Assembly: GCA_963717525.1 (NCBI GenBank)
Contig: OY970343.1
Location: forward strand, 128,001 to 192,000
Length of the DNA: 64,000 nucleotides
Origin: an uncultured Methanoregulaceae archaeon
GTDB taxonomy: Archaea > Halobacteriota > Methanomicrobia > Methanomicrobiales > Methanospirillaceae
Direction: 5' to 3'
This document shows, one piece after another, positions 1,734 through 26,688 of the stretch. Position 1 is the first letter of the stretch, and the number at the start of each line of letters is the position of its first letter. The notes below the pieces were generated by a model. That model did no database searches. It was not told where the DNA came from and saw only the letters and a list, made by a program, of their open reading frames with translations. The position numbers were made by a program, and so were the translations under genes.

Positions 1734-1761
1734 TTTTCCATTAATCTGAATTAAAAGAATG
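1734..1761. repeat. dif-like 11-6-11 site A1
   Basis: TTTTCCATTAA-TCTGAA-TTAAAAGAATG. Confidence 0.6.
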
Positions 1762-1780
1762 ACGATACGATCCACCCATA

Positions 1781-1808
1781 TTTTCCTTTTATTTGCATAA
1801 AAGGCAAG
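1781..1808. repeat. dif-like 11-6-11 site A2
   Basis: TTTTCCTTTTA-TTTGCA-TAAAAGGCAAG. Confidence 0.75.
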
Positions 1809-1877
1809 CAGAATTTTTGACTTCATAGAAAAAGCTCAATCGGTATACTGTTGCGTTTACGGTCAGTGATCGATTTT

Positions 1878-3727
1878 TTACTGCACATCGGCGAGCCGGT
1901 ACGTCCCCTTCGGCACGAGGATCTCAAAGCGTGCTCCCTTGCCCGGTTTACCGGTCTCACGGATTGTGATTTTGGAGATAGCAAGAATTTCCCGGGACAG
2001 GGCCAGACCGAGCCCGGTGTTCTTCCCAAAACCCCAATCGAAGATATGCCCCTTATCCTCGCCAAGGATGCCTTCACCATCGTCCTCACACACCACGATA
2101 TAAACGCCATCGACTTCCTCAGCAAAGAACTGGATGGTGGTAATCTTCCTGCCATACCGTACTGCATTCTCAATCAGGTTGTAAAATACCTTAAAAATCA
2201 GCGGATCAGCAAATAATTCTATTCCGGCAGATAGATCGTTTTTCACCTGGATATTTCCGAGTGAGGCTTGCTTTGCTGCAGTATCCACAAGAGTGCGTAT
2301 ATCCTGCCATGCAGGAGCAGTTTCTCCTATTATAGTATATGTTTTCGCGAACAGACTTATAGAGGAAATACGAGTACTTACCTGCTTGATCCACGTGAAA
2401 TACTTCTCAAGAGCTGGATCCGGGATCTTCTCGTGAAGTAATTCAACAAATCCATTCAAAGCCAGAATCTGATTGTCGATGTCATGCCGCGTGATGTTGG
2501 TAAGGAGGGCAAGCTTCCTGTTCGCCTGCCGAAGCGCCTCCTCCGCTCGCTTGCGCTCGGTGATGTCAATGATGATGCCCCGAAGCCCGGTGATCCTGCC
2601 ATTCACGACAATCGGTGACGAGTAGATGGTGACGGGAAACGTGCTCCCGTCTTTCCGCAGGGCCAGATATTCACCTGTATGTTCCGTTCCTCCCTTTCCT
2701 TCAATCATGGTGCGGAAATCCACCGAGACCCGTTTCAGGTCATCGGGAGCAATCATCTGCCAGATGGTAAGCCCATGCGTGAAATCATCCTCTCTATACC
2801 CGAATCGTTCGAATGCAGTGTGGTTCGAGTACGTCAGGTTACCCTCTGTGTCCGCTTCATAGACAACCTGGGGCAGGAGGTCTGCAAGCTCGCGGAATCG
2901 ATTCTCGCTCTCCCGCAACGCCCCCTCTGCCTGTTCCCGTTCGGTAAGGTCCCGGATCGACTCGATCGCACCGATGACCTCATCTTGCCGGTTGTAAAGC
3001 GGGCTTGCTTTGCCCATAAGCGTGACCGGTTTTCCCTGAGGACGAGGAAGGGTTGTTTCGGCGATCAGGACATCCTTCCTGTGAATGATATGGGTATATT
3101 TTTTGGCGATGATCTCGTCGGATTCATAGATCAGATTGATAAGTATTGGTTGCCGTTGCCCGTAGAACGGGATTGCGTACTCGTAATCTCCCTTCCCCAG
3201 CATCGCCGCGGCCGAAACCCCTGTCATCTCTTCAATGGCCCGGTTCCAGCTATTACTACGCCCTTGGTATCGATTGCAAAGGTTGCGTCAGGCAGGAAGT
3301 TGATGATATCCGCTTCCCGGCGCTCAAGGTCCCGGATACTGATTTCCGCCTTTCTCTGCTGGACAGCTTGTCGGATCTGGTGCGCGAGCTCGGTGAACTG
3401 TGACTTAGGTTCACCACCCTTCTGGAGGTAAAAGTCAGCGCCTTCATTTAATGCCTGGATGGCAATCTCTTCACGTCCTCGTCCGGTGAAAAGGATGAAC
3501 GGGATGGTATTTCCCGAAGTTCTTACCTTCTTTAAAAATTCGATTCCATCCATGTCCGGCATCTGGTAATCGGAGATGATCGCAGCATATGGCCGCTTCA
3601 CGAGCATACCGATCGCCTCTTTGGCAGAGGTTGCGGTATCCACGCTGAACTCACCGCTCAGCTCCATGTAGAGCTTGGTTAGGTCAAGCAGGGAATCTTC
3701 ATCATCAACATAAAGAAGATTATACAA
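1878..3727 (-). CDS. Hybrid receiver-PAS-histidine kinase (one gene split by a 1-nt frameshift near 3250)
   Basis: Receiver (LLYVDD..DYQMP..K) in 3224-3727; PAS, HisKA (TRHDIDN) and HATPase (NLIENA, DDGEG, GLGL) in 1878-3227; adding one base restores the PAS motif VIAWNRAIEEMTG. Confidence 0.85.
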
Positions 3728-4058
3728 AATACGACATCCGTAATTGGCAGCATAGGGTATTTTCCTTTCTGCGGTTATTATACGTTTTTTTAATCTTTAG
3801 ATTCTATAAAATCAAACCTTATCGGCAGCTTTCCGAAACCGTCTGATGGACTCTCAGACGTTGGCGTTGGCTTTCAGCGGCAGGGACAGGATTGAGGAAG
3901 GGCAAGAATAATCGGTGTCCCGTTTACAAAAGACTTTTACAATGTGTAATGTCGGCCATCAGTCACCAACCGCAACATCATCAGAATGGGAAATCCCAAC
4001 AAATGCGGATATCTTTGGTATTGATCCGGAAAAAAGAAGGGCTGGATGGGATTCGTGA

Positions 4059-4646
4059 TCACCCGAGCGGTGCGACCGTGCTTTTGTACATTTCGTTGAG
4101 CACCTGCGCAAGACCCGTGTAGATCGCAGAGAGCCCACAGATGATACCTATGTAGCCTGCGGTCACCACGATCGTCCCGTTCCCTGTTGCTTCCCCGAGT
4201 GCGAGAAGGAAGAACAGGATGGTCAGCGTGCCAAAGACTACCTGGAGGGCCCGGTTCGCTCTCAGGGTCCCGATGAACATGACCGCCGTGAACAGACCCC
4301 ACATAAAGAGGTACGCTGCCATTGCATTTCCTGAACTCGCATCGGCAAGTCCCATCTTCGGAAGGACGAGCAGGCCGACCAGAGTGAGCCAGAACACCCC
4401 ATAAGAGGTAAACGCCGTTGCCCCGAACGTATTGTTCTTCTTCCACTCCTGGATACCTGCGATGATCTGTGCGAGGCCACCGTAGAAGATCCCCATAGCA
4501 AGGATCATCGATCCCAGTTCGATGAACCCGGCATTGTGCAGGTTCAAGAGAACGGTGGTCATGCCGAATCCCAGCAGGCCCAGAGGCGCGGGATTGGCAG
4601 TCAGGTCGAGGTTTTTCACGTTCGTTACGATTTCATTTGCATTCAT
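4059..4646 (-). CDS. satP: Acetate uptake transporter (SatP/GPR1/FUN34/YaaH family)
   Basis: [15 protein letters not shown] signature, [12 protein letters not shown], multiple TM helices; adjacent to acs. Confidence 0.92.
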
Positions 4647-4715
4647 AGTTCTTCAGTTCCTTTTTTTGTTGAGTGGTTTTACATCCGTATCCGTTGTTTC
4701 ACCGGTTCCGGGAGT

Positions 4716-6615
4716 CTATTCTTCCAACGTTGAGATATCGCCGGGGTCCATACCCAGCTCCTTTGCCTTAAGGACCCGGCGCATGATCTTGCCGCTGCGG
4801 GTCTTAGGGAGCTTGTCGACAAACTCGATCTCATGGGGGACTGCGATGGGCCCCAGTGTCATCCTTACGTGATAGATCAGATCCTGCATGAGCTTGTCAC
4901 CGGGTTTGTTCCCGACTCTCAGGATGACAAATGCCTTGATGGAGTTCCCTTTCACCGGGTCGGGTTTGCCAATCACCGCGGCCTCAGCAACGGCACTGTG
5001 GGAAACGAGGGCGCTTTCTACTTCTGCGGTCCCGATATTATGGCCGGCAACGATGATGATATCGTCGGCACGACCGAGCACCATGATATACCCGTCCCTG
5101 CCCTTTACTGCAAGGTCACCTGCTGCATAAACCCCGTCGATGGTCTCCCAGTATTTCCGGTACCGCTCGTCGTTTTTATAAACGGTGCGGAACATTGCCG
5201 GCCAAGGTGCCTTGATCGCAAGGAAGCCACCGGTGCCCGGTGGTACGGAATTTCCTTCCTTGTCCACGACATCGGCAATGACACCCGGTACAGCTTTTCC
5301 AGCAAACCCGGGTCGCATAGGCTCCCCTACCATGGTGGTGATCATATGCATTCCTGTCTCCGTCTGCCACCAGGTATCGACGATCGGGCACCGGTCCTTC
5401 CCTATGGCATGGTGGTACCACACGAATGCCTCGGGGTTCAGGGGTTCACCGACAGACCCGATGATCCGCAGGGAATGCAGGTCGTACCTGTCCGGCCACT
5501 CCTCTCCCATCTTCATGAACATCCTGATTGCAGTCGGCGCGGTATAGAAAACATTGATCTTCTGCTCCTCGATCAGTTTCCACCAGATGCCCGGATCCGG
5601 GTAATCGGGCGTCATCTCGGTCACAAACACCGTGGCCCCGACAGCGAGCGGGCCGTAGACGATGTCAGCTGTGGCCGGTGATCCAACCGGGATCTGCTGT
5701 ACACCAGTAGATGTCATTCTCTTTGAGATCGAAGACGAATTTGGTCGTGTAGTAGGTGCCCACCATATAGCCCGCGCTCGTGTGCACGATGCCCTTGGGC
5801 GTCCCGGTGGAACCGCTGGTATACAGCATGAACAAAGGGTCTTCTGCATCCATCACTTCCGGCTTGCATTCTGACGGCATACCCTCCATGAGGCCATAGA
5901 AATCTTTCTCGAAATCCGCCCTGATCTCGACCGGGGGCTCTTTTCTCCTCCGGTAGATGATGAGGTGCTCGACACTTGGGGCGTTGAGGATCGACTCCTG
6001 GACTGTCGTAATAAGCGGGATCGCCTTCCCCCTGCGGATGGAGATATCCGCAGTTATGACGACCTTTGCCTCTGCTTCCCGGATACGCAGGTTCAGGGCA
6101 GTCACACCGAATCCGGCGAAGACTACGCTGTGGATGGCCCCAATACGTGCACATGCCAGCATTGCAATGATCTGTTCAGGTACCATGGGCATGTAGATAC
6201 AGACCCGATCACCTTTCTTCACGCCGATCTTCCTGAGGCCATTTGCAAAGCGGCTCACTTCTGAAAGAAGTTTCTGGTACGTGTAGATTCTCTCCGCACC
6301 CTCTTCTCCCTGCCAGAGGAGCGCAACCTTGTTGCGCCGGTGGTTCTTTACATGGCGATCGAGGCAGTTCGCTGTTATGTTCAGTTTTGCATTGACGAAC
6401 CATCTCGCATAGGGATACTTCCATTCCTTTACGGCATCCCATGGCCGGATCCAGTCAAGTTCCCGTGCAATCCTGTCCCAGAATCCATCAGGATCGGCCA
6501 GGAAAGCCTGGTACGCGGTCTCGTAGTCACCCAGCCAGGAATCCGCTTTGTATTCCGGACCGGGCGTATAACGGACATCGCTCTCAACCAGTTTGACATC
6601 AAAGTCTTCGGTCAT
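4716..6615 (-). CDS. acs: AMP-forming acetyl-CoA synthetase (frameshift near 5666)
   Basis: [17 protein letters not shown](YIVYGPL), [20 protein letters not shown]; removing one base joins the two ORFs. Confidence 0.93.
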
Positions 6616-6797
6616 ACGTTCTCCTATTCTACATTATTAATCATGTTAAAAGTACTATTTATAACTGTCGAAAAGAAGTTCGGCAATTGCCGATTCTCTA
6701 GGATGGGTTTATCATAAAGCCAAGGTTGAAATCGTGGGAAAATCCGTCTCTATAGTGTCAGGAGGATTACGGAAATGTGATAAAAATAAAACCCGAA

Positions 6798-8252
6798 TCA
6801 TCCTACCACTTCCCGACAGGTATCGCTTCCGGATCCTAAGCCAAAAGACCAGTATGCAGGCCCTCGTGCGGCACCAACATCCCGGCATGGTTTTTTACGG
6901 CGGGGATGCGGCCACCAATCAGTAATATCCCTGATGGATTCGATTGCCCCAGTGATCTGGTGGGTCTGGTCATAAAACGGAGAAGCCTTCAGCCATAGGA
7001 TCCGCTCCTTACATTCCAGCCGGTCCAAGAGTGTCTCCGCCGTAAAGGTACATTCATACTTATGGAGGTGGCGGTACAGCTTGCGCACTTCCGGATCATC
7101 GTTAAAGATGAGATCAACGAGAAGCGGACGGTTCTTCCCGTATATGGCAACCGAACACTCGTAATTCGTTTTCCCTACAATGTCGCTTGTTTTAACACCG
7201 GTCATCTCCTCGATGGCGCAGTTCCAGGCGATAACTCTTCCCTCGCTGTCCACAACAAACGTCGGATCGGGAAGAAAATTGATGATATCCGCAAATCTCT
7301 GGTTGCTTTCCCTGAGGACACGTTCTGCCTTTTTTCGCTCGGATATATCGGTAGCGATAGTGATGATCACTTCCCGGTCGCCCCACCGGACGACCCTGGC
7401 GTGGATTTCAAGAGGGATGTGCCGGCCATCCTTGTGGCAATAAAGAACCTCGTACGTTACCTCTTCTCCATTCCTGATCTCCTTTATCCGTTCCGCAATA
7501 TTGTCTGCAGACCCGGGGATATTGATCCGGCTGCTGTCCAGTTCAAGGAACTCTGCAAGCGAATACCCGAGAAGATTAAGGTTTTTCTTATTCGAGTACA
7601 GGACCTTCCCTCTGAAATCGTACACAACAATAGCAGCCGGTGAGGCATCGACCAGATCGGCAAGAAGAGCGTTTTCTTCTTCTGCCATCATCCCGTCTGT
7701 CCGATCTTCAAACTCAACAAGAATTCCTTTGTCGCCCCAGCTAAATACCAGTGGAATTATCCGGATTTGAAACGCCTTCCATTCTTTCCCGACCGGGATC
7801 CATGTATTCACGACACTCTTGATTCCTGACAGTCCCTTTCGCGCGGGATCGCGGATACGGTCAAACAGGTCGGCGCCGATGGAGGTTGCAGCGATATTTT
7901 TGTGTTTGAGATCCTCTATCGCGATCCCGAACATCTGGGAAAATGAATCGCTGATGTCTCGGACAATAGAGAACTCATCGAGAATGAGAAGAAGATCTGA
8001 GGATTGGCTGAGAATCTGATCGACCGGGAGCCTTTTTGAGAGAGTGAATACCTTTGCCGGGCCGGTCTTTCTCATATCCACATGGCCGGCGACAAAGAGC
8101 GAGCTGAGATACTTAGTCGTTGTTATCCGGCTCAGGCCTGTCTTTTTGGAAATTTCCTCGATAGTAAGCCCTTTTTGCACATCCTTCAAAAGGCCAATGA
8201 TATCCCGACAGTGGTTCTCGTCCAAGGTAATCCCCGCCTCAAATAATGCCAT
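6798..8252 (-). CDS. Winged-HTH plus multi-PAS sensor/regulator
   Basis: N-terminal LTIEEISKKTGLSRITTTKYL HTH followed by PAS/PAC repeats; no kinase domain seen. Confidence 0.8.
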   Translation of the reverse strand: MALFEAGITLDENHCRDIIGLLKDVQKGLTIEEISKKTGLSRITTTKYLSSLFVAGHVDMRKTGPAKVFTLSKRLPVDQILSQSSDLLLILDEFSIVRDISDSFSQMFGIAIEDLKHKNIAATSIGADLFDRIRDPARKGLSGIKSVVNTWIPVGKEWKAFQIRIIPLVFSWGDKGILVEFEDRTDGMMAEEENALLADLVDASPAAIVVYDFRGKVLYSNKKNLNLLGYSLAEFLELDSSRINIPGSADNIAERIKEIRNGEEVTYEVLYCHKDGRHIPLEIHARVVRWGDREVIITIATDISERKKAERVLRESNQRFADIINFLPDPTFVVDSEGRVIAWNCAIEEMTGVKTSDIVGKTNYECSVAIYGKNRPLLVDLIFNDDPEVRKLYRHLHKYECTFTAETLLDRLECKERILWLKASPFYDQTHQITGAIESIRDITDWWPHPRRKKPCRDVGAARGPAYWSFGLGSGSDTCREVVG

Positions 8253-8424
8253 CTCTGATTTCGGGACGGAAATCCACTTTAAGAGAAATAATCGTCATGC
8301 CCCCCACAACGAATGCATTTGATAACTAAATGTACAAGTCTTTATATATATAATATGCCATTTTCATTAAACAGTGAAGCATTGAAGGGAATACCGGGGA
8401 TGTGATTGCACGAGAACAAAGAAG

Positions 8425-8784
8425 GTGACGTATTTTACGGAGGAGGAGGAAGAACTTGGCAGTCTTTTCATGCAGATTGGCATAAAAAAGAACGCGGCAA
8501 AAGTGCTGGTATTTTTAGCCAATAGTTCAGAAGCGACCTCCCATGCGATTGAGCGGGGGACAGACCTGCGCCAACCCGAAGTTAGTCTCGCCATGCGTTA
8601 CCTGATGGATCAGGGTTGGATCATGAGCTGGGAGAGCAAGGCCGAGAGCAAGGGACGACCGGTCAAGATCTACGCGCTTGCAAAGCCCATCGCAAATATC
8701 ATGGATTGTATCGAAAAGGAGAATAACGAAAAAGCCACCAATCAGCTCAAACTCATCAAGGAATTACGGGATTACCTTCATTAA
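8425..8784 (+). CDS. Archaeal winged-helix transcriptional regulator
   Basis: IERGTDLRQPEVSLAM..KGRPVKIY pattern typical of a methanogen wHTH regulator family. Confidence 0.8.
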   Translation: MTYFTEEEEELGSLFMQIGIKKNAAKVLVFLANSSEATSHAIERGTDLRQPEVSLAMRYLMDQGWIMSWESKAESKGRPVKIYALAKPIANIMDCIEKENNEKATNQLKLIKELRDYLH

Positions 8785-8833
8785 TCCTCAAACAACAGAG
8801 ACGTGTTTTCTGGTTATTTATTTCTACCAAAAC

Positions 8834-8861
8834 CGGACTTTTAATTGTTATAAAAGGAAAA
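8834..8861. repeat. dif-like 11-6-11 site B1
   Basis: CGGACTTTTAA-TTGTTA-TAAAAGGAAAA. Confidence 0.7.
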
Positions 8862-8877
8862 CTTGGCAATCAGCATC

Positions 8878-8905
8878 TTTTCATTTAATTTCTATTAAAG
8901 GAACA
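8878..8905. repeat. dif-like 11-6-11 site B2
   Basis: TTTTCATTTAA-TTTCTA-TTAAAGGAACA. Confidence 0.7.
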
Positions 8906-9048
8906 ACGCAATATCTAAAATTTTGAGAGATTCCTCCCCGGAAAATTACCGGAAAAATCCGACCCGGGAATCTGATCAGGACATCGACAACCGCAGACGC
9001 ATCAGAATCCTAAAGGAGGGGGAAAAGAATGGAAATTCAGAGAGTGTA

Positions 9049-9537
9049 TTAACCGAAAAAATTCATTTTTTCATAACCGACCAGAGTCAGTTTTTCATTG
9101 ATTATTTTCTCTGTGAATGGTTTGTATCCACGTCGTTTATAGAACACATCGTTTCTTTTGCTTTCCCGGCCGGTGAATAATTCAAATCTCTTAATGTGGG
9201 GAAAACTTTGTTCAATGCTCGTTAGAAGTAATGAACCAATCCCACGATTCTGGTAATCCGGGTGGACTATTAATTTTTTTATTAAACAGGTTCCCTCATG
9301 TACTTCCGCTCGAATTGACCCGACAATCTGTTTATCAATTTCAGCTTTTAGAACGTGAGTATGCCGGAATTCATCCCGGATATCAATAATATCTTGTTTT
9401 AACGGAGGAATTGAATAATCATCGATCAGTGCAGCTTCGCTTAGGAATGCGATCTTCTGAAGTTCAAGGATGGATTCGAGATCTTCGGATGATGCGACAG
9501 ATATGCAAATATCTTGCACGGTATGGATTTTGTTCAT
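9049..9537 (-). CDS. GNAT family N-acetyltransferase
   Basis: VHPDYQNRGIGSLLL acetyl-CoA motif; N..FYKRRGY. Confidence 0.9.
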   Translation of the reverse strand: MNKIHTVQDICISVASSEDLESILELQKIAFLSEAALIDDYSIPPLKQDIIDIRDEFRHTHVLKAEIDKQIVGSIRAEVHEGTCLIKKLIVHPDYQNRGIGSLLLTSIEQSFPHIKRFELFTGRESKRNDVFYKRRGYKPFTEKIINEKLTLVGYEKMNFFG

Positions 9538-9604
9538 CAGGTAACCTATGGTGAAATTATTTCTTATCTTATCCTGCCATTCATTGATGAAACTATCGCC
9601 ATGA

Positions 9605-9632
9605 TTTTCCGTTTATGTAAATAAAAGGAAAA
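9605..9632. repeat. dif-like 11-6-11 site C1 (degenerate partner C2 at ~9651-9680)
   Basis: TTTTCCGTTTA-TGTAAA-TAAAAGGAAAA, 10/11 arm symmetry. Confidence 0.8.
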
Positions 9633-9941
9633 TAGGGCAAAAACCTACAAATTCTTGTTAATTAAGCAGATTGACAGAATATTTCATTCAATCTTCTGGA
9701 ATTTATTCGGAGTGATATTGTCAACGTTCTCCATTGGGTTCTGTAAAGTATTGGCAGCTATTGAAGTTCGATACTTCTATGCGGGAAACTGAACTGCCGA
9801 CACCTTGACAGAACCTTATCTCGCAGCATTAATAATGAGACACGTCGCAGTTCAATTTAATCTTTTCCGGCACACACTGACAGACATGGCGGGATCATCC
9901 TGTGGAAAGCGCGGGGACGTTCAGCCGAAAGAAGAGGATGC

Positions 9942-11537: not shown

Positions 11538-11577
11538 TCTTTTTCTCAATAGAGTGTCTTAAACGAGAGGGAGTGAT

Positions 11578-11635
11578 GGCATTTGTCGAAACTTCCTAGA
11601 GGATTTCCTACTAAAATAAGGAATTCTACAGAGCC
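11578..11635. mobile_element. Possible minimal MITE / IS-end remnant
   Basis: Imperfect terminal IRs GGCATTTGTCGAAACTTCC vs rc GGCTCTGTAGAATTCC; GAT on both flanks (possible 3-bp target duplication). Confidence 0.35.
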
Positions 11636-11661
11636 GATTTTTAATTGTTATTAACGGAATT
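11634..11661. repeat. dif-like 11-6-11 site D1
   Basis: CCGATTTTTAA-TTGTTA-TTAACGGAATT (same spacer as B1). Confidence 0.65.
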
Positions 11662-11684
11662 AAGTACAATTTTTAAGTACGGAT

Positions 11685-11712
11685 GTCCTGTTTTATGTAA
11701 ATAAAAGGAAAA
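11685..11712. repeat. dif-like 11-6-11 site D2
   Basis: GTCCTGTTTTA-TGTAAA-TAAAAGGAAAA (same spacer and right arm as C1). Confidence 0.7.
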
Positions 11713-11882
11713 AGATAGATTTTATCGTAATGAAAATTTGTCCTATACTTAAAAATAACTACTAACGGTGCTGTCAAGTCTGCTGGAGGTAAGATATAGC
11801 TCTTCGATGGAGCTGTTATCATAACTCCCGAAGACTGACAGCACCTTCTTGATCTCATAAGTCAGCGAGGCATCGTCAATAT

Positions 11883-12821: not shown

Positions 12822-12947
12822 AAAAATTGGAATGTATTGTTTAGCTGATGAAATACAACATCCTCCTAATATCTTTTTAGATCGGTCGTACTTATTTTAC
12901 TTTTTATTAGTTTTCTTGGTATTGGTGCGTTATCGTAATTTAAAGAA

Positions 12948-13011
12948 AATGATATCGTCGTAATCGACACCTTTCTGATATTGCAAGAGTCACGACGACG
13001 CACCAGAATCC
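12948..13011 (+). repeat. Second repeat family, copy 1 (inverted copy at 15043-15105)
   Basis: AATGATATCGTCGT..ACACC..AAGAGTCACGACGACGCACCAGAATCC aligns by eye with the reverse complement of 15043-15105. Confidence 0.6.
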
Positions 13012-13156
13012 TTCATGTCAAGTTTATTAATATGTTCAAAAAGTCGAACGGGCGCATCATGCAACCTGACTGATTACTTTCACTTTTCATGGAACGTGTA
13101 TAGTTATCAGAAAGCGCCATAGAGAATTTTTAACCTTATGGGACGAGGATGATAAC

Positions 13157-13516
13157 ATGAAACGCGATTGAGATTTGGTAAGAAAAATACTGTTACTGTT
13201 GGAAGAGAAAACATGACCTATAATTACGATGCCGATAATTGAGGGATATTCCTCAGATCAGGTAGGTTATCATGCGTATCTTACGAAAATGAATGGCCTC
13301 ATCGAAGCTGCTGAGGTTACATCACACGAAAGTTCAGTACCATCGGCAATTCCTTACGAATTGACCTCGAAGGGGTACGATTTTCTTGACGCTTGCCGCA
13401 ATGAAACTGTATGGAACAAAGCAAAAGAGAAACTGAAATCAATGGCTAGCGATGTTTCTTTTGAAGTTATGAAAGCGTTACTCGTCGGAATAGCAAGTAA
13501 AATGTTAGGGATCTGA
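13157..13516 (+). pseudogene. DUF2513 domain protein with two in-frame TGA codons
   Basis: MKRD*DLVRKILLLLEEKT*P.. in frame with LTSKGYDFLDACRNETVWNKAK. Confidence 0.7.
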
Positions 13517-13586
13517 AAGATATTATTGACCGGCTGATTTTTTTGAATCATATTTATAATATCGAATAAACAAGTGATTTTCTATT

Positions 13587-14957: not shown

Positions 14958-15042
14958 CTTTTAGCATAATATCCATCCCGTATAAGGCCTTCATATCTTA
15001 GTTCTATTAGTAGATCTCATAAAAAACAGTCTAGAGTACTCT

Positions 15043-15105
15043 GGGTTCTGTGACGTTGTCGGAATCTTTAAATAGTCAACAGTGGTGTGCCACGACGATA
15101 TCATT
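15043..15105 (-). repeat. Second repeat family, copy 2 (inverted)
   Basis: Reverse complement AATGATATCGTCGTGGCACACC..AAGATTCCGACAACGTCACAGAACCC. Confidence 0.55.
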
Positions 15106-15135
15106 ATTATTAAGCCCCGTTAACGCAACAGCATC

Positions 15136-15163
15136 CTTTCCTTTTATTTGCATAAAAACGACT
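15136..15163. repeat. dif-like 11-6-11 site E1
   Basis: CTTTCCTTTTA-TTTGCA-TAAAAACGACT (same spacer as A2). Confidence 0.7.
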
Positions 15164-15198
15164 CATTCTGTGTTGACTGGAAATATAAGGTCGGGATG

Positions 15199-15226
15199 TT
15201 TTCGGTTAATTCCAATTAAAATTGCC
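15199..15226. repeat. dif-like 11-6-11 site E2
   Basis: TTTTCGGTTAA-TTCCAA-TTAAAATTGCC; reverse complement resembles D1. Confidence 0.6.
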
Positions 15227-15476
15227 CTGACAAGTTCTATTGTAGCTACAAGACATTAAAACGGTCAACATTGAGGGGTCATGACGAGGCATTTTGTTGG
15301 TTTCTCGTTAACGCGACATCACCATTTTAAAATTTTTAATGCTATTTTAATTTTTAAAGCCATTATACTTTAAAAATATAAAACACAAGATTTTTATTAT
15401 TGAATTATAATACATCTTATCATAGTCCCAAGAAAATCATATTTCGGTACAGTCATTGAAGAGAATTTGGAAAATG

Positions 15477-15575
15477 GAGAGGTGGGCTCCCCGATCCTGA
15501 AAATCAGATGAACCCCTCTTGCTCGAAGGCATGAACTAATCCTCTTCTGATATTGAAGAATTATCTGGTCATGCC
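15477..15575 (+). promoter_or_regulatory. Candidate structured 5' leader RNA, copy 1
   Basis: Two nested hairpins: GAGAG..GGGCTC/GAACCC-CTCTT enclosing CTGA/TCAG, and GGCATGA/TCATGCC enclosing TCTTC/GAAGA; ends ~30 nt before the start codon. Confidence 0.5.
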
Positions 15576-15605
15576 CTGAAAAACAGCACTGGAGACAATG
15601 AAAAG

Positions 15606-18450
15606 ATGAAATTATTGAAATCTTGCGTAATACTGCTCGCGATAGTACTTGCAGTTATCGTAATAGCACCGATAGTGTATGCCGTAAATTACCCGGGTCC
15701 TTCAGTGACGCTCACTGACGCACAAGTGGCAGCACTTGATGTAAATACCATCCAATTGCCACAACTTCATTTCGATAATTCGCAAGCAAAAGTGATTGTC
15801 AATGCTGAGCTCAATCCTGTCGAAACTACACAGTCAACTCAAGTTACCTCGATGGCAGTGTCATCCCAAAGCACTTCGGGTTCAACAGCCCCGGTTGGCG
15901 CAATTATTTATCATTCGCAGGGAGGAGTAACAAGCGTATTTGATTCGAATGGCAATCAGCTGTTTGCTACAAACGACGCCACCGCGGCACTCGTTGCAAC
16001 TCCAAACGGTGAAGCTCCTGCAACATTTGTCCATGAGATTCCTTCCGGCTCCATTGTAAAATATGGAACGAATGGAACGTTTGTTTTCTACAATAGTCAA
16101 TTGATATTAACTCTCGTGAATGAGGGGGGATCTAATTTAGTAAATGAAAATTCCATTGCCGTTCCCTCAGCTGTGTCAGTTCCCGTATCTAGTTGCGGTA
16201 ATTTAAACGGCAATAATTATATAGGCTGGATCGAAGATGCAGAAACCAGTGCCAGTGCTCCAACATCATTGACCAGATTTGAAGCGACGTGGAAAGCGCC
16301 TGAACAAACACCTAATACCACGGAATCGCAGGCTGGACCTCTTGCTATATTTAATGGGATTCAGAATGCGAGCACAGGCGTTACAGATGGGATTATGCAA
16401 CCGGTCCTCAGTTGGGACTATATTCCAAAGGACTTTCCTACCACACCCCGCCTATATTACACAGGCGCTGCTTGGGATTTTCACACACCCAATTCTGGAG
16501 AAGATTCCCTCCATTCCACCCCGATATCGGTTTCCCCCGGAGATACTGTTCGTGGAACTATGGAGTGGAGTCCGTACCTCAAAACGTGGATTATTCAATT
16601 TAGTGACATAAATAACGGAAGGACAACTGAATTTCATTCAAACAGATTTACGACAACCAATCTTCAGTTGTTTATGGCTGTTGAAGCCTCGCAACAAGGG
16701 GTAATAATAAATCCAACTCCAACTGTCCCTAGTTTAAACAATGGATTGACCGGATCTATTCAGCTTCAATAATATCATTATACAAAACAATGGGCAATCA
16801 GTTCCGGTCATATTTTCCCCGGATATTTGTTCATTAGCAACGCAACATTTTAACAGTTTAAATGTCGTTATTAATCCAACCCCATTGAGCGTTTCGCTCA
16901 TTACCCAACCGATTTCCTATACAATCACCGCAACAGCAAACTTCAATGGAGCGATTAGTCCCTCTGGATCTGTTATAGTAGTGGATGGAGCAAGTCAGAC
17001 CTTCACTATCACGGCAAATCAGTGGTATGTGATCGATGATGTCGAAGTTGATGGAACCTCTGTTGGCGGATCTGACCTGCAAACGTTTTCATATACGATA
17101 CCCGATGTAACAGAAGATCATATGATCCATGCGTCGTTCAAACGTGCACAAATCTACACGATAACACCAAATGCCGGATCTGGCGGTTCTATCACGCCGT
17201 CAACCACAGTCAGAGTTCGACAGGGTCAAAGTCAGACGTTCACGATAACACCAGACACCGGTTACGCTATTGAGGATGTCCAGATTGACGCGGGAACTCC
17301 TAATGCCATAGACGCCGGGGCTACAAGCAGTTACACATTTCCCAATGTACAAGCAGACCAAACCATCAGCGCCACCTTTATTCCTACCTATACGATAACA
17401 CCAAGTGCCGGATCTGGCGGTTCTATCACGCCGTCAACAGCAGTCAGGGTTCAACAGGGTCAAAGTCAGACGTTCACGATAACACCAGACACCGGTTACG
17501 CTATTGAGGATGTCCAGATTGACGCGGGAACTTCTAACGCTATAGACGCCGGCGCTGTAAGCAGTTACACATTTCCCAATGTACAAGCAGACCACACCAT
17601 CAGTGCCACGTTCATTCCTACCTATACGATAACACCAAGTGCCGGATCGGACGGTACTATCACGCCGTCAACAGCAGTTACGGTTCGACAGGGTCAAAGT
17701 CAGACGTTCACGATAACACCAGACACCGGTTACGCTATTGAGGATGTCCAGATTGACGCGGGAACTCCTAATGCCATAGACGCCGGGGCTACAAGCAGTT
17801 ACACATTTCCCAATGTACAAGCAGACCAAACCATCAGCGCCACTTTTAATCTGATTCAACCCAATAATCCGATGACGTGGGACTGGTCTTCGCAAGGTTG
17901 GGGTAACTGGCAGTACACCTGGACAGTGTCAGGAACGCAGACTGGGCCCAATTCCCCATTAGGTCCCGAGATCGATAATGGCGTTGGCGTGTTTGGAACA
18001 AACACCAATCTTCTGGCCGGTTCGACTGAGTCTGATGTTACGAATACCTTTACCGATCCTACCGGCACCGGATGGAATACCCTCATATTCAACGGGGCGC
18101 TTGGTGCGAGTGATGTTCCCGGTGGGCGATGGATGACGATTACCGTTAATGGCCAGGAGGTGTTTGGCGCAACAGAATTACAGACACCACCAGGGGATGC
18201 CGATCAGCCGTTTACGATTGTTGCATCATTCCCCCAGACTTCTTCAGCAATGGTTACCCTCTCCCAAGGGCAAGATCCTGCCTGGGGGCCAGATTTCCCG
18301 ATGTATTGCAATAGTTTAACTATTGGCGAAGAAAACACCCAACAAATGAGTACTATGACTGCACTTGTGTCAAAGCCGAAGATCACCTTCACTATACCGG
18401 ACGGTAGTGAATGGAGTGGAAATAAGACGACCTCTAAAGTCGGAGCTTGA
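15606..18450 (+). CDS. Large secreted protein: putative glutamic-peptidase/ConA-like domain, InlB-B-like repeats and C-terminal domain (1-nt frameshift near 16759)
   Basis: Signal peptide; IMQPVLSW..SVSPGDTV..AVE pattern; removing one T joins the two ORFs in frame; YTITP..GGSITPS..SQTFTITPDTGY repeats. Confidence 0.65.
17155..17846 (+). repeat. Three near-identical 234-bp coding tandem repeats
   Basis: Units start near 17155, 17389 and 17623 (78 aa each). Confidence 0.9.
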
Positions 18451-18611
18451 AAGGAGGATACATCGAGCGAGATAGATACCTTCAACGACAATATGGGATA
18501 AATGAGCACCTCCCTTTTCGATAGATAAATTCATGAAGATAAGGAAGGACGATTTACAATACTTACTCCACAAATAGCAAAAAAGTCTGCTGAATATGAA
18601 AAGAGGAAACC

Positions 18612-19175
18612 ATGTTTAATAATTCGTTGACGATCCTTCTGCTAGTCTCCTGCATTCTTATTTCAGGATGCGTTTTCACTCCCTCAGTCAACAATCTTTC
18701 AACCAATGTATCGATTAATCAATTCACCCTTAACGAGTCAGTCTCAGGAAACGTAACCCCAATTATTCCTCCAATCCCTGGAGACTTTCCTGTTTATATC
18801 AGTGAAAAATATATCAACAACGGTTCTGGGACTATTGTCATGAATTATTCTGAGATCGTTGCTCATGACTATACTAATATTCCGGTTTCGCCAAGGTTTC
18901 CCGGTGGAAAACTTGCACCATTTTGTGGGTATTCAGGTAATCTTTCTAAAATCTCCGAGATTGCTATGAATGATAACCGAACTCAAAAAATTCTCAAGGA
19001 TGGTGGGATAATTGAGGATGTGAATGTATACGCCGCTCAACAAATGCTAACACATAATGAAAATCCTTGCGATGGTCTATATTTAGCTCTATATATTAAT
19101 ATTTACATCAGTCAAACAAAGGTCATTGTGGTGAATGAGAGCGCGATGAATGTTGTTGATATAGAAACATTATAA
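18612..19175 (+). CDS. Predicted lipoprotein of unknown function
   Basis: LLVSCILISGC lipobox-like signal. Confidence 0.7.
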   Translation: MFNNSLTILLLVSCILISGCVFTPSVNNLSTNVSINQFTLNESVSGNVTPIIPPIPGDFPVYISEKYINNGSGTIVMNYSEIVAHDYTNIPVSPRFPGGKLAPFCGYSGNLSKISEIAMNDNRTQKILKDGGIIEDVNVYAAQQMLTHNENPCDGLYLALYINIYISQTKVIVVNESAMNVVDIETL

Positions 19176-19340
19176 AATAGCGAGAGACGGGTGTTGATAT
19201 TGGCGGAGGTATTTCCTTTGAGTCACGATAACGCATCAGAATCGCACGGTATATTGCTATTCACCCATTCAAGATTCTAATATAACGCTCTGGAGGTAAT
19301 ACTGATCCTCCCCATGGTTTCCAAAGAGAAAGAGATTCAT

Positions 19341-19807
19341 ATGTTAATAATTCGTTGACGATCCTTCTGCTAGTCTCCTGCATTCTTATTTCAGGATGCG
19401 TTTTCACTCCCTCAGTCAACAATCTTTCAACCAATGTATCGATTAATCAATCCGCACTTAACAAGTCAGTCTCAGGAAACCTAACCCCAATTATTCCTCC
19501 AATCCCAAGAGACTTTCCTGTTTATATCAGTGAAAAATACATCGACAACGGTTCTGGCACTATTGTCATGAATTATTCTGAGATCGTTGCTCATGACTAT
19601 ACTGATATTCCGGTTTCACCAGAGTTTGTTAATCCTCATGCTCCTTTTTGTGGATACTCGGGTAATTCCTCCGATTTTTCCGAGATCGCTATGAACGATT
19701 ACCGCGTTCAAAACATACTCAGAGGTGGTGGAATAATTGAGGATATAGATGAATGGGTAATTTTTCGAAGCCATTTATTTTTCGCGCACCAGAACCCTTT
19801 CCTTTAA
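19341..19807 (+). pseudogene. Truncated paralogue of the upstream lipoprotein
   Basis: Near-identical 5' half to 18612-19175; 1-nt deletion just after ATG; homology lost after GGIIED, shortly before site F1. Confidence 0.75.
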
Positions 19808-19824
19808 TAACAATTAAAAATGTC
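19797..19824. repeat. dif-like 11-6-11 site F1
   Basis: CTTTCCTTTAA-TAACAA-TTAAAAATGTC; spacer is the reverse complement of the B1/D1 spacer. Confidence 0.75.
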
Positions 19825-20076
19825 TTGGCAAGTTCTGTTGTAGGGGTAGTATATTAAACGGTCAACATTTGGGGTCATGTTGAAGGTCATTTTATTGGAT
19901 CTCGTTAACGCATCATCGCCCATTAAAATTTTTAATGTAATTATAATTTTAATATGTTGTTATAACGTTAAAATAAAAAACACAATATTTTTATTTATCC
20001 ATTTACAAACCATTCTCTTGCCAGTCCTAGACAAATCAAAGTTTGGTAGTGTCGTTCAAACAGAATTGAAAAAACA

Positions 20077-20174
20077 GAGAGACGGGTTCACCAGTCCTGA
20101 ACGTCAGATGAACCCTTCTTGCCCAAGGCATGAATCAATACTCTTCAGACAATGAAGAATTTTCTGGTCATGCC
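20077..20174 (+). promoter_or_regulatory. Candidate structured 5' leader RNA, copy 2
   Basis: GGGTTCA/TGAACCC enclosing CTGA/TCAG, and GGCATGA/TCATGCC enclosing TCTTCA/TGAAGA; upstream of GGAGG and ATG. Confidence 0.5.
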
Positions 20175-20197
20175 TCTAAAAAGCAACACCGGAGGTA

Positions 20198-22744
20198 ATG
20201 ATTGACATGAAATTGGTAGATTGAGGAGTTATACTTCTTGTATTGATTCTTGTGACCATTTTTGTAGTGCCCGGGGTGGGGGCAACCCAGAACAACCCAA
20301 CTCCTGACAACGGGATATGTGATAACAATCACGGTCAAGGATGTGCCGTCAAGCAGCCTTATCCGCCATGTGACAACGATCAAAACAATCACTATTGTGA
20401 TTGGCATGCGGATGATAGCTGGTGTAAAAATCACGGACAAGGTAAAAATTTTGTCAGTGTCAAAAACGCAACCGTTGCTGCATCATATCTCGTGGGCGAA
20501 ATATCCAATGAACAATCGACTGATTACACAGATTGGAATGGGGCAACAGTAGTAGAAAATACGACATATTACGATGTGAATGGCGTTGAATCCGCGTACT
20601 CGTTCGATGTCATTGTCAACGGCCAATATGATGGATATATCATGGTCTCTGCAACTCGGGATAATTTTCCCATCCTCGAATTCTCAAAAGGAATTACCCC
20701 GGACAAAGATCCAGGGACTCTCATTAATGCAGAGAAACTGGCTCAAACTCAAATAAAAGATCCCAGAGAAGTTTTGGGCGAAGGGCAGCCAATTTATCTC
20801 GGCGCAACATTCTTCGATATGGCATATCCGGTAGAACTCAATAATACAAGATCCGGCCCGCAACCAATCCCTGATGACCAAATACTGGTTGATCTCATTA
20901 GGGGGGCCATTGCAGAACAAACACCAGAACAACTAAACGCAACCGAAAGACAAGAACTGGCGCAAATACAGCAGCAGAATATTGCCGAAGCAAACTCCGA
21001 ATGGAATGCTCTTGATACTGCAGGAAATTCCAATTCCGGTTCAACCACATCTATGAATGCAAATTCCGTAAAAGCAAATGTTGCAGTAATCGGGGGTGGT
21101 GGTCAGCCCACTAATTCCAATCCTATAGTCGGTGTTCCGGCGTATTTATGGAGATATGGTTGTGCCCCAACTTCCACAGCTATGGTCTTGGGATATTGGG
21201 AGAACCAAGGATTGACAGAATTACCCGCTGTTACCGATACTACTTACGGAAATCCATTAAATGTTGACTTAGCAGAGGTTATGGGTACAGACATTGTGGA
21301 GTCGGGATATTGGTGGGATTGTATACTCAATCCCTTGGATAAAAATTGTGGTGGCACATCGCCTGAGGGGATATCTACAGGAATAACAGATATTTTAAGT
21401 AATAACCTTATCAGTGGATGGTCACAATCATCAAACTTTGAACATGTTGAAGGTTACAGTGGCGATATAAATGAGATAAATAATGGATATCCGTTCCTCC
21501 TTAGTCTGGATGGAGGGGGTGCTCCTGTGGGGAGCACTACAAGCTATGGACAACATGTTATTGCCGTCATCGGTTACGATTCTTCTGAGAACACTTTAAT
21601 AGTTGATGATACATTTCATACTGTTCCGGTCGAGATAAGGTATGGTAATTGGCAGAATGCAATGTATTATAAAATCGAACATGGGGGTGATTATACGATC
21701 ATCGCAAGTGCAGGACCTGGAGGTAATATTTATCCTTCTGGTTCTCAATTAGTTGTGCCAGATTTTAGTCAATCTTTCAGTATCGTTCCGAACACGGGTT
21801 ACGTTATTCAAAATGTTGAAACGGATAATGATGTAGACCATGGGCCTATAGTTATTTACACCTTTAGCAATGTAGTGGCAGATCATTCCATCAGCGCTAC
21901 ATTCACACCTATTACCTATACCATCAGCGCCAGCGCAGGAACGGGGGGTAGTATCACTCCCTCCGGATCTGTTAGTGTTCCGTTTGACGGAAGTCAAACG
22001 TTCACCATTACGCCAGCCTCCGGTTACGTTATCAGCGATGTCCAAGTTGATGCGGGAACCCCTGAGTTTGTAGATGCTGGGGCTGCAAGCAGTTACACCT
22101 TTAGCAATGTAATTGCAAGCCATACCATCAGTGCCACATTCCAGCAGATCCCCACCACCTACTCCTCGTCATGGGACTGGTCATCACAAGGTTGGGGTAA
22201 CTGGCTGTTCAATTGGTCGGTATCAGGAGATCAAACAGGCCCCAATTCTGCGTTAGGTCCCGAAATCGGTAACGGTGAAGGCGTATTTGGCACAAATACC
22301 AATCTCCTTGCCGGTTCGACTCAGTCAACTGTCACGAATACCTTCATCGATCCGACCGGAGTCGGATGGAATACCCTCACATTCAGTGGTGCGCTTGGTC
22401 CGAGTGACGTCCCCGGCGGACGTTGGATGACGATTACCGTCAATGGTCAGCAGGTATTTGGCGCAACAGAATTAGATACGCCACCGGGAGATTCCGGTCA
22501 ACCGTTCACGATTACTGCCTCATTCCCGCAAACATCTTCCGCTTTAATTACCATCTCTCAGGGGCAGGATCCCGCGTGGGGTCCAGATTTCCCGATGTAT
22601 TGCGATAATTTGGCACTGAGTAATGAAAACACTCAAGAAGCAAACACAATGACCGCTCAGGTGTCAAGTCCGAAAACAACCTTCACTATCCCTGATGGGA
22701 GCGAATGGGCCGGAAACACGACGAATTCCTCTATCAAAACCTGA
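20198..22744 (+). CDS. Secreted papain-fold (C39/C10-like) peptidase with InlB-B-like repeats and shared C-terminal domain; in-frame TGA at 20222 in the signal peptide
   Basis: Prodomain-like GYIMVSATRDNFPILEFS; catalytic-like YGCAPTSTAMVLGYW and GQHVIAVIGYD; ATGs at 20198/20207 in frame with ORF 20243 across a TGA. Confidence 0.7.
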
Positions 22745-22834
22745 AAAGAATGTAAATAGACCGAAGTGAATAACGTCACTTGAATAAAGGATCCAATTAA
22801 TCCTTTTTCAATCAGTCTGACCGGTAGATGAGAT

Positions 22835-24143
22835 ATGAAAACGCGAAGGTATTTTGGATTTCGTGGTGTCAGCACAGGATATACCCGGCGAGCTGTAAAA
22901 TTATTCCTTGGCTTCTTCCTGCTGATCCTGCTTCTAATCCCGACTGCATCAGCGCAGGATATGATGTTCCGATACGACGCCAGTCGGTACTGGAGATTAC
23001 AGTCCAGTCGCCGGCACGACAGGCACCACGATATCGCAGATCTGGAGTTATGCGACCGGAAACGCTGTGTTTTCTGGCCCGACGATAGCGAATGGTGTCG
23101 TATATATCGGAAGTTTTGATGACAAGGTATACGCGCTGAATGCTTCTACCGGGCTGCAGCTCTGGAATTTTACGAATGGAGGTGATTCGCATTCCAGCCC
23201 TGCGGTAGCGAACGGCGTGGTGTATGTCGGGAGTGGGAATTACAACGTATACGCACTGAACGCTTCTACCGGCATGAAACTTTGGAATTATACGACCGGA
23301 AGCACTGTGGCATCCAGCCCTGCGGTAGCGAACGGCGTGGTATATGTCGGGAGCGAGGATCACAACGTATACGCACTGAACGCTTCTACCGGCATGAAAC
23401 TTTGGAATTATACGACCGGAAGCACTGTGGCATCCAGCCCTGCGGTAGCGAACGGCGTGGTGTATGTCGGGAGCGAGGATCACAACGTATACGCACTGAA
23501 CGCTTCTACCGGCATGAAACTTTGGAATTATACGACCGGAAGCACTGTGGCATCCAGCCCTGCGGTAGCGAACGGTGTTGTATATATCGGGGACGGGAAT
23601 GGAAAAGTATATGCGCTGAACGCCTCCACCGGGACGCAGATCTGGAATTATACGACTGAAAACTCTGAGTATTATGAGTATATCACCAGCCCTGCGGTAG
23701 CGAACGGCGTGGTGTATGTCGGAAGTGATGATGGCAAGGTATATGCGCTGAACGCCTCCACCGGGACGCAGATCTGGAATTATACGACTGAAAACTCTGA
23801 GTATTATGAGTATATCACCAGCCCTGCGGTAGCGAACGGCGTGGTGTATGTCGGAAGTGATGATGGCAAGGTATATGCGCTGAATGCTTCTACCGGGCTG
23901 CAGCTCTGGAACTATGCAACCGGAACATTTGTAAGTTCCGACCCGGCGGTAGTGAACGGCGTTGTATATATCGGGGACGGGAATGGAAAAGTATACGCGC
24001 TCAACACCAGGGTCCCAAATGCAATCTCCCCCATAATATATATTGTTTTTTTTGCATTTATCGTGCTTCTTTGTGTGTATTTTGCTTATCAGATTGTAAA
24101 AAAAAGGAGGAGAAGGGTGCTGATAAGTTCGCGGGACGATTGA
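22835..24143 (+). CDS. Membrane-anchored PQQ-like (BamB-type) beta-propeller repeat protein (frameshifted near the 5' end)
   Basis: Signal peptide then MMFRYD; repeated SSPAVANGVVYVGS.D..VYALNASTG..LW; C-terminal TM plus KKRRRR. Confidence 0.85.
23193..23873 (+). repeat. Near-perfect 120-bp and 132-bp coding tandem repeats
   Basis: 120-bp units near 23193, 23313, 23433, 23553; 132-bp duplicate ~23610-23873. Confidence 0.85.
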
Positions 24144-24359
24144 ACCGGATGCAAATCCATCAGATATTCCTCAAGAAATCTGGTTCTGATAAGTTAGCGT
24201 TGTTGACCGATTTTTCATATCGTTAAAATTATCCTGTCGACCACCGAAGTAACAAGACCTATAACCTCCTTTAACTGTTATCGCCCGGACCCGGTTTACG
24301 GGCCAGATTTTTCTGGCGGTTTTCCCGATATAAAATTCTCTAAAGTTTTGGATATTACA

Positions 24360-24387
24360 CATTCCTTTAATAGGAATTCAAGGAAAA
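24360..24387. repeat. dif-like 11-6-11 site G1
   Basis: CATTCCTTTAA-TAGGAA-TTCAAGGAAAA; reverse complement closely matches B2. Confidence 0.75.
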
Positions 24388-24458
24388 ACACAGTCCAAGA
24401 GATCCATATACCCTAAAATAAGATCATTTTTGAGTGGGGAATAGAGAATATCGAATTT

Positions 24459-24923: not shown

Positions 24924-24982
24924 ACTGGGCCTTCCGAATGCTCAAGGTGACTTTACATATCATACTATAAAATGCCACTAGA

Positions 24983-26663: not shown

Positions 26664-26688
26664 ACTTTAGCATGATACGTCTGAATAT

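Follow-up and report, generated by a model that had tools for sequence, protein, structure and literature searches.

The assembly of accessory genes in archaea is poorly understood, the known routes being the integration of whole elements at tRNA genes and a few integrons in metagenome bins. The attC sites of integrons measure 57–141 bp and have a conserved structure with GTTRRRY ends, and the repetitive extragenic palindromes and bacterial interspersed mosaic elements (REP/BIME, or REPIN) of bacteria are short imperfect intergenic palindromes, often located between convergent genes, which occur as singletons and doublets. According to the accessible parts of the sources, the dif site of the archaeal XerA system is a 28-bp inverted repeat found at the terminus in a single copy per chromosome, or nearly so, and retained in related organisms (PMC2958812, PMC8371274), 28-bp sites bound the small accessory modules of Acinetobacter plasmids (pdif, XerC/XerD; PMC13141974), and the terminators of Methanococcus maripaludis carry U4 tracts, at least two of which are needed for the termination factor aCPSF1 to bind efficiently, termination growing stronger with more tracts (PMC8716108). 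In this study, we show that a 64,000-nucleotide stretch of DNA from an uncultured Methanoregulaceae archaeon (assembly GCA_963717525.1, contig OY970343.1, positions 128,001 to 192,000; hereafter the window) carries in its first 27 kb members of a family of 28-bp intergenic palindromes that is real, restricted to genomic islands and part of the Methanoregula accessory gene pool. We see about an even chance that these sites are module-end palindromes which act both as bidirectional terminators and as joints for exchange, because they are found at the 3′ ends of genes, where one arm resembles a terminator, and because the crossovers of gene modules fall inside them. No description of such elements was found in the literature on archaeal integrons, XerA/dif and Methanoregula islands, and the word 'cassette' is absent from the accessible portion of a review of archaeal tyrosine recombinases.

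The genome assembly is a single contig of 2.29 Mb with 54.5% GC; coordinates given here are window positions unless marked 'genome' (the window is genome 128001-192000). The proteins of the window are closest to Methanoregula, and its DNA occurs in soil and bog metagenome runs. GC content is patchy over the first 27 kb (34-55%) and ranges from 51 to 58% over the remainder. A preliminary description of this DNA, made from the letters alone, had named 11 main sites and three weaker candidates, and all 14 positions were inspected. The main ones all hold members of one motif family and are far from chance, while the candidates at ~9651, 11714 and 12922 are rejected with 12, 12 and 8 mismatches, the last being actually the inverted partner of a different, ~95-nt repeat. 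The pattern TTCCNTTWATNNNNATWAA gives 18 strand-hits in the 2.29 Mb, 10 of them within window positions 1-27000, and a position weight matrix (PWM) trained on the window sites finds 42 sites of at least 14 bits and 35 of at least 16 bits genome-wide, against 12 and 1 with the reversed matrix. There are three clusters, each in a low-GC island (genome 121-152 kb, 1105-1156 kb and 1273-1312 kb), with few sites scattered elsewhere; the island of the window starts 6.5 kb upstream of it, and the absence of sites from the core-like part reported earlier is upheld, with 0 PWM hits of at least 14 bits in 24388-64000. Within intergenic DNA of less than 42% GC, the islands hold 25 sites in 20.4 kb (1.22/kb), compared with 3 in 49.7 kb (0.06/kb) outside them at equal GC (0.36), which makes the island density 20 times that of equally AT-rich DNA elsewhere, a contrast that is inflated somewhat because the islands are partly defined by clustering. 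Shuffled island sequence yields 0.07 sites in all. Thus, equal frequency in ordinary AT-rich intergenic DNA, the outcome that the preliminary description had set against its own proposal, was not observed.

Beyond this genome the sites are fewer. A 24-nt palindrome allowing up to 3 mismatches has 26 copies here (control 0) and 0-8 in each of 60 congeners (controls 0-4), most having 0-4 and 27 of the 60 none; similarly, a 19-nt pattern gives 18 strand-hits here vs 0-2 in each of 40 relatives. A metagenome scan recovered Methanoregula-like contigs with 1-6 sites each and the same flanking sequences, and in other Methanoregula genomes the sites are found at transitions between core and low-GC DNA, flanking low-GC inserts of one or two genes. 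A donor lineage full of sites did not emerge, as the matches to a 22-nt pattern, among those listed (at least 120), were mostly single hits in AT-rich bacteria plus three Methanoregulaceae metagenome-assembled genomes (MAGs). The conserved flank is absent from 60 viral contig matches to the 22-nt pattern. In a set of viral contigs of ~2.6 kb and GC 0.44-0.53 (loci L128, L145, L148, L149, L151, L152, L164, L169, L170, L174 and L179), this palindrome pattern lies in the first 160 bases, with no Methanoregula flank, and is probably an unrelated stem-loop of small viruses.

The core of the site reads TTCC-TTWAT-N4-ATWAA-GGAA and the full site T4CC-TTWAT-N4-ATWAA-GGA4, a palindrome of 12-4-12 form over 28 bp. 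Two inverted 11-bp arms around a 6-bp spacer had been proposed; since TTWAT-N4-ATWAA is invariant, the palindrome enters that spacer and leaves 4 nt free. The 28-mer consensus that went with this proposal describes the sites at 1781, 8878, 9605 and 24360 (3 mismatches at most; 0 matches in 100 shuffles) but not the other 10 of the 14 positions, and the same four likewise have 8-10 of 11 complementary arm positions, as against 7 in one further site and 4-6 in the remaining six. Many copies conserve a single outer arm. A comparison of 89 distinct sites, drawn from this genome and related contigs, finds hardly any variation at positions 8-9 and 11-12 or at their partners (paired in 81-88 sites); positions 3-5 and 7 are paired in 65-71 sites, and position 6 in just 46. 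Position 10 covaries with its partner (A-T in 43, T-A in 29, non-complementary in 17), and its 72 complementary pairs compare with about 45 expected from marginal frequencies. This variation separates an A type, TTTTAT...ATAAAA (TTTTAT-TTRC-ATAAAA, with centres mainly TTGC or TTAC), from a B type, TTTAAT...ATTAAA (TTTAAT-ARSA-ATTAAA); 16 of the 89 sites are A/B hybrids, in which the type switches on either side of the N4. The spacer classes that had been noted do recur, tracking the A and B arm subtypes, but the orthogonality ascribed to them does not hold for a free centre of 4 nt that takes 40 forms in 89 sites. Repeat finding shows a 21-22-nt core nearly unchanged between copies, 1781-1802 resembling 15137-15157. 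Both the pairing of sites 44-63 bp apart and the four clusters between convergent 3′ ends were confirmed, and doublets 37-63 bp apart are seen in this genome, in metagenome contigs and in other congeners, often as an A-type plus a B-type site, as expected if every module carries its own ends. B-type sites have in addition a conserved gene-side flank of ~100 nt (ACGTAAAATCCAAAATTTTAGAG...CCGCCGGAAAA), and the copy beside site 8878 is homologous to genome 121527-121655, 1121654-1121783 and 1105001-1105094 and to many metagenome contigs. Many B sites directly adjoin, on their left flank, a GC-rich hairpin of the form GTCC-NNNN-GG-ATTAT-CC-NNNN-GGAC (e.g., genome 121500-121524 and 1156237-1156262; loci L220, L231, L232, L259 and L285); its stem letters vary by copy yet stay complementary (CCTCTAGG/CCTAGAGG, CCTAGCGG/CCGCTAGG), which points to a folded strand.

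The location of the sites at the 3′ ends of genes, with an arm resembling a terminator on the sense strand, is reasonably established. A gene 3′ end faces 29 of 35 sites; the intergenic regions concerned are convergent for 15 of the 35, tandem for 14 and divergent for 6, the low-GC intergenic base pairs being split 13%, 47% and 40%, respectively. The T-rich arm of one-armed tandem sites is on the strand of the upstream gene in 9 of 10 cases, and both arms are present in 10 of the 15 convergent sites and in 5 of the 14 tandem ones. Moreover, the B flank faces a gene 3′ end in 8 of its 9 genome copies and adds T4-T5 runs in the sense direction. The consensus arm, T4CCT3-4 on the sense strand, has the archaeal feature of U4 tracts just behind the gene, and, as far as sequence can tell, the T4-CC-T4 arm matches the archaeal double-U4 terminator signal. 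Among core genes, TTTTTT occurs 537 times downstream vs 143 upstream and TTTTCC 133 times vs 53. The arm on the sense strand would therefore, by its predicted function, provide the U4-CC-U3/4 double U-tract used by aCPSF1, a full palindrome between convergent genes would stop transcription from both sides, and a one-armed site would do so from one side. With the described U-tract terminators, in the accessible text of the source, the sites share the sense-strand T4-CC-T3/4, here 3-260 bp behind stop codons (PMC8716108), and doublets could serve as successive terminators. In contrast, the known terminators are without a palindrome or conserved sequence beyond the U-tracts, whereas this family is island-restricted, common to unrelated genes and marks duplication breakpoints. 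A promoter role of A-type sites was set aside, given that two divergent-region A sites alone fit it and most are at 3′ ends.

It is also reasonably established that recent duplications and rearrangements of modules had their crossovers inside sites. Comparison of the genome with itself yielded 20 dispersed repeats (at least 88% identity, at least 300 bp) with 80 ends, 8 of them no more than 20 bp from a site centre vs ~0.06 expected; two more, from the integrase module, lie within 40 bp. In the case of the thiC module (genome 121527-123247 = 1121782-1120062; 1721 bp, 97.2%), base-level alignment shows identity up to the first base of the site centre at one end and from just inside the far arm at the other, beyond both sites the sequences are unrelated, and the arm to which one and the same module end is joined is of B type in one island and of A type in the other. 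A 1043-bp module (genome 1117683 vs 1306136, 97.3%) switches identity in the left arm of a B site, and on the other side it breaks off at AACGCAACAGAACC, the terminal repeat of the ~95-nt family mentioned above, which resembles a miniature inverted-repeat transposable element (MITE). The 99% identity of the integrase module begins in the first bases of site 24360, its far end being without a site. The context of the modules differs between islands: genome 1117-1122 kb reads MreA-site-[1043-bp module ... thiC module]-site-GNAT, and the window reads MreA-site-site-GNAT with thiC elsewhere. In other Methanoregula DNA, a thiC-upstream fragment in MAG locus L202 begins at a site centre, and genome G130 has a 2.8-kb insert between direct repeats sharing 21 nt that include the centre TGCT. 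The earlier view of modules as cassettes is supported in so far as the thiC, GNAT, integrase and 1043-bp modules end in or at sites at base resolution, and shuffling driven by a recombinase is a possibility discussed below. We propose that the sites may be the ends of gene modules circulating in Methanoregula accessory DNA, and that modules would be joined, copied and re-sorted among the three islands at the palindromes, with the crossover at or beside the 4-nt centre. The palindromes could serve as joints because near-identical copies lie at every module boundary, and the crossover might be the work of the island-edge tyrosine recombinase or the host XerA, or else a product of ordinary recombination between dispersed palindromes.

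Several observations weigh against reading the sites as terminators and joints. The matrix was trained on the window sites, which match it by construction, and the islands were delimited partly from site clustering, so that there is circularity on both counts. On the terminator side, the 6 sites in divergent regions are out of place, the hairpins are weak, only 5 of 8 folded sites beating their shuffles at z < -2, and compact T...A palindromes are found in just 1 of 138 core convergent regions and are therefore not the general terminator design of this genome. On the side of the joints, no site is found at any end of 16 of the 20 dispersed repeats, many of these 16 being copies of insertion sequences (IS). 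The expectation that synteny breakpoints between genomes coincide with sites was borne out only in small part, as 25 of 51 internal ends of cross-genome matches are in islands and 3 of the 51 are at sites. In addition, the homology of a thiC on contig L286 (90% identity) breaks off at the stop codon and not at a site, and a candidate empty site (G201 vs G197) was discarded, the replaced segment being without sites and the homology ending at the gene end.

The nearest competitor, possible though we hold it less probable than terminators and joints, is that these are true site-specific recombination sites, with arms bound by the integrase family or XerA, which would exchange strands across the centre and so insert, excise or invert cassettes, as an archaeal equivalent of the Acinetobacter dif modules or of an integron. 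Each of the three site-rich islands has a related tyrosine recombinase at its edge (genome 153.3-154.6 kb; 1271.6-1272.9 kb, a 99% copy with a frameshift; and 1101.5-1102.6 kb, 33-36% identity), 0.9-2.3 kb from the first site, and the integrase module itself ends in a site. However, two of the three loci are one duplicated module, so there are just two independent associations, and the other end of the module has no site. The 445-aa recombinase of the window is distantly similar to XerA (50.6 bits vs a cut-off of 220) and belongs to a family of 72 proteins, from Methanoregula wherever the source is named. R140, K173, H262, R265, H287 and Y295/Y298 are invariant in 14 aligned members, and judging by these residues the island-edge enzymes appear catalytically intact. 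There are nine tyrosine recombinase matches genome-wide, and a host XerA candidate is present (genome 1387441-1388287, split in the assembly). Module ends inside sites, the hybrid A/B sites with their switch on either side of the N4, the identical centres of the direct repeats in G130, and the 21-nt identical direct repeats 9612-9632 and 11692-11712 around a single gene all agree with recombination at the centre, but recombination between dispersed palindromes would give the same breakpoints. Furthermore, neither a site nor a repeated palindrome lies within 38 kb of an integrase homologue in G080 (78% DNA identity), the site count of most congeners is 0-4 in spite of the 72 family members, and site direction tracks the neighbouring gene and not the array. 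The excision and inversion proposed earlier left no joint at any site in the contigs of runs X1, X10, X11 and X12 over window 1500-16500, though contigs hide rare forms; a single loose contig end at 1783 is a cross-match to a look-alike site at genome 126353. At its fullest, this account, which we put forward tentatively, would describe a novel Methanoregula cassette system of single-gene modules ending in 12-4-12 palindromes; crossed at the 4-nt centre by a genus-specific recombinase or XerA, these would build up and re-sort the accessory islands and would also insulate each cassette as U-tract terminators acting in both directions.

Two further explanations are less likely than either of these. 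The strict palindrome with its free 4-nt centre, the two symmetric types and the excess of complementary pairs at position 10 would suit operators or boundary sites for a dimeric DNA-binding island protein (e.g., MreA/Lrs14-like) that silences or insulates acquired genes, and in two islands, as well as on contig L210, an MreA-family gene does precede a site by 50-60 bp (the paralogues at genome 1117241 and on L210 are followed by a site as is the window gene). Such a role is improbable, since most sites are behind genes and not at promoters, no site accompanies ten loci of MreA homologues in other genomes, the matches to MreA break off at the gene end in five genomes that do bear sites, and the module breakpoints are left unexplained. 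We regard with similar doubt the notion that the sites are remnants of a non-autonomous foldback transposon of MITE type, with a full flank-site-flank form of ~170-200 bp that entered intergenic DNA and was later broken. Full two-flank copies exist at genome 1290383 and in L295, the same element is found behind unrelated genes, and the 95-nt family, clearly MITE-like, shares the same intergenic regions, but at most one flank accompanies most copies, no target-site duplication was noticed, although none was searched for, the genome lacks a Y1 (IS200/RAYT) transposase, and half-elements are joined precisely at the palindrome centre. Replication-origin boxes were dropped because the sites spread over 30-50 kb, no search for orc1/cdc6 having been made.

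The sites resemble several described systems without belonging to them. Membership of the Xer/dif class, as had been suggested from an 11-6-11 architecture, is not supported, given the 26-42 copies that are clustered in islands here. The geometry, a 28-bp inverted repeat, is similar to that of archaeal dif (PMC2958812, PMC8371274, in their accessible parts), with the qualification that the palindrome enters the spacer and 6 of 11 sites have 4-6 of 11 arm pairs. With 0-8 sites per congener and no match in 27 of 60, there is no conserved single copy, and therefore this is not a conserved chromosomal dif. The likeness to the Acinetobacter dif modules is functional only. In what is accessible of that source, the 28-bp sites likewise bound small accessory modules, a given module is met in several surroundings with its junction falling within the site, and like centres recur (PMC13141974). 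Here, in contrast, both arms follow one consensus without XerC/XerD asymmetry or alternating C/D modules, 4 nt are free at the centre, the setting is chromosomal in an archaeal host, and the sites carry U-tracts and follow gene direction. The comparison with integrons made earlier also fails. A palindromic element shared behind the 3′ ends of unrelated genes and a tyrosine recombinase at the array edge are common to both, but the 445-aa enzyme is not IntI (18.4 bits vs a cut-off of 265 on model TIGR02249) and points into the array, genes face both ways, and the sites, 28 bp and conserved in sequence, are not attC-like. As to REP/BIME, the short imperfect intergenic palindromes, the frequent convergent setting and the mixture of singletons and doublets are alike, but the copies number tens, not hundreds, and are island-confined in an archaeal host; the Y1 transposase PF01797 had no match in this genome, a control search having matched 6 of 14 reference genomes. 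Rfam gave no match at the 11 window sites. An A site with its flank at thiC (genome 123214-123248) aligned with all 37 positions of Rfam CRISPR-DR57 (common UUUCC, UUGC loop and AAAAGGUAGGGAU), at 25.7 bits, below the gathering score of 39. Scans of k-mer spacing revealed no CRISPR array in the genome, though cas1 is at 1.398 Mb, no CRISPR-DR57 match was found in 40 congeners and likewise none in control genomes, and the likeness is probably a coincidence.

If the preferred reading is correct, a palindrome that closes an acquired gene and also provides the joint for its exchange would be a simple mechanism for modular island growth in methanogens, and mobility would be tied to transcription insulation. 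Even the modest version, in which the sites are predicted to be a portable, sequence-conserved bidirectional terminator common to unrelated genes, would be unusual in archaea. The features of the window are collected in Table 1.

Table 1. Sites and associated features in the window (window positions; bit scores of sites are from the PWM trained on the window's own sites)
Feature	Position	Strand	Remarks
Site, one conserved arm (TTTTCCATTAAT-CTGA-ATTAAAAGAATG)	1734..1761	+	25.5 bits, + strand only; first of doublet, convergent genes
A-type site (TTTTCCTTTTAT-TTGC-ATAAAAGGCAAG)	1781..1808	both	29.2/22.1 bits; DNA hairpin -5.2 kcal/mol, z -2.3
MreA/Lrs14-family winged-helix regulator gene	8425..8784	+	NF053756, 136 bits; stop codon 50 bp before site 8834
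Hybrid site, B-type left and A-type right arm	8834..8861	-	28.4 bits, - strand only (conserved arm)
B-type site	8878..8905	both	22.5/22.9 bits; hairpin z -3.65
B flank (ACGyAAAATCyAAAATTTTrAGAG...CCGGAAAA)	8906..9012	+	Between site 8878 and GNAT 3′ end
GNAT acetyltransferase module	9014..9632	-	89.6% to genome 1121889-1122513; homology ends at outer edge of site 9605
A-type site, best palindrome (10/11 arm positions complementary)	9605..9632	both	27.0/26.7 bits; divergent region; hairpin -7.9 kcal/mol, z -4.66
Rejected weak candidate	9651..9678		12 mismatches, 3/11 arm positions complementary
B-like site, one conserved arm	11634..11661	-	20.6 bits, - strand only; doublet start behind minus-strand DUF4062 gene
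A-type site, one conserved arm	11685..11712	-	25.1 bits; 11692-11712 = 9612-9632, 21-nt direct repeat
Rejected weak candidate	11714..11741		12 mismatches, 5/11 arm positions complementary
Non-site: inverted partner (77%) of right half of 95-nt element 15040-15133	12923..12961		Inverted repeat pair
MITE-like ~95-nt element, terminal inverted repeats CTGTkrCGTT...AACGCAACAG	15040..15133		Abuts site 15136
A-type site, one conserved arm	15136..15163	+	25.5 bits, + strand only; behind plus-strand gene 13587-14957
B-like site, one conserved arm	15199..15226	+	Opens 415-bp repeat shared with 19798-20214 (74%)
B-type site, one conserved arm	19797..19824	+	Overlaps stop codon of open reading frame (ORF) 19355-19807
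B flank, inverted relative to 8906-9012	24260..24359	-	Behind PQQ-repeat gene 23067-24143
B-type site	24360..24387		Start of 99% identity between integrase module and second copy
Integrase module (site, 154-aa ORF, integrase)	24362..26726	-	99% to genome 1271502-1273907; far end 26726 without site
154-aa ORF	24459..24923	-	No Pfam/NCBIfam match; 58%-identical paralogue 53287-53655
445-aa tyrosine recombinase	25295..26632	-	Catalytic residues present

The island of the window encodes a Reg_prop-repeat protein, a PAS histidine kinase, a response regulator, an acetate transporter, an acetyl-CoA synthetase, the MreA-family regulator, the GNAT protein, DUF4062 and DUF2513 proteins, InlB-B-repeat surface proteins, a C39-like peptidase, a PQQ-repeat protein, the 154-aa ORF and the 445-aa recombinase. 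It is mostly absent in 150 genomes of the family, in which an MreA-like gene, a PQQ-repeat gene and one integrase homologue are all that is shared. The MITE-like family has AACGYAACAG ends, of which 16 occur genome-wide, and is present in the Methanoregula MAG locus L203; in the window, inverted copies bracket 12923-15130, which contains the DUF2513 gene and a 456-aa ORF. Two surface-protein gene clusters have a 415-bp upstream region in common (15200-15613 vs 19798-20214, 74%), 18616-19019 and 19344-19744 are 88% identical, and ORF 16885-18450 contains tandem repeats of 234 nt (Flg_new_2/InlB B-repeat domains) at 17154-17851. The islands also carry TIR-STAND NTPase, HEPN and DUF4411 genes and an archaeal pilin operon, BREX BrxC/D adjoin the broken integrase copy, and the third island includes a TATA-binding-protein gene (TBP, E 1e-46; genome 1293237-1293815, L333:5237-5815).

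The acetyl-CoA synthetase is split into ORFs 4716-5849 and 5665-6615 by a frameshift at 5666, which is probably an assembly error, since one base is missing there in all covering contigs of four runs (changed depth equals total depth in each run). XerA (genome 1387441-1388287), CysRS (26966-28236) and the second integrase copy are also split, which suggests indel errors in the assembly. Three 100%-identical IS copies of 1026 bp with an rve (DDE) transposase are found at genome 125156-126181, 1094738-1095763 and 1739973-1740994, the first corresponding to window -2844 to -1819. Finally, two inverted tRNA-Cys genes bracket the island of the window (genome 114625-114697, +; window 28252-28324, -), one adjoining a SepSecS/class-V aminotransferase-family gene, possibly SepCysS, and the other adjoining CysRS.

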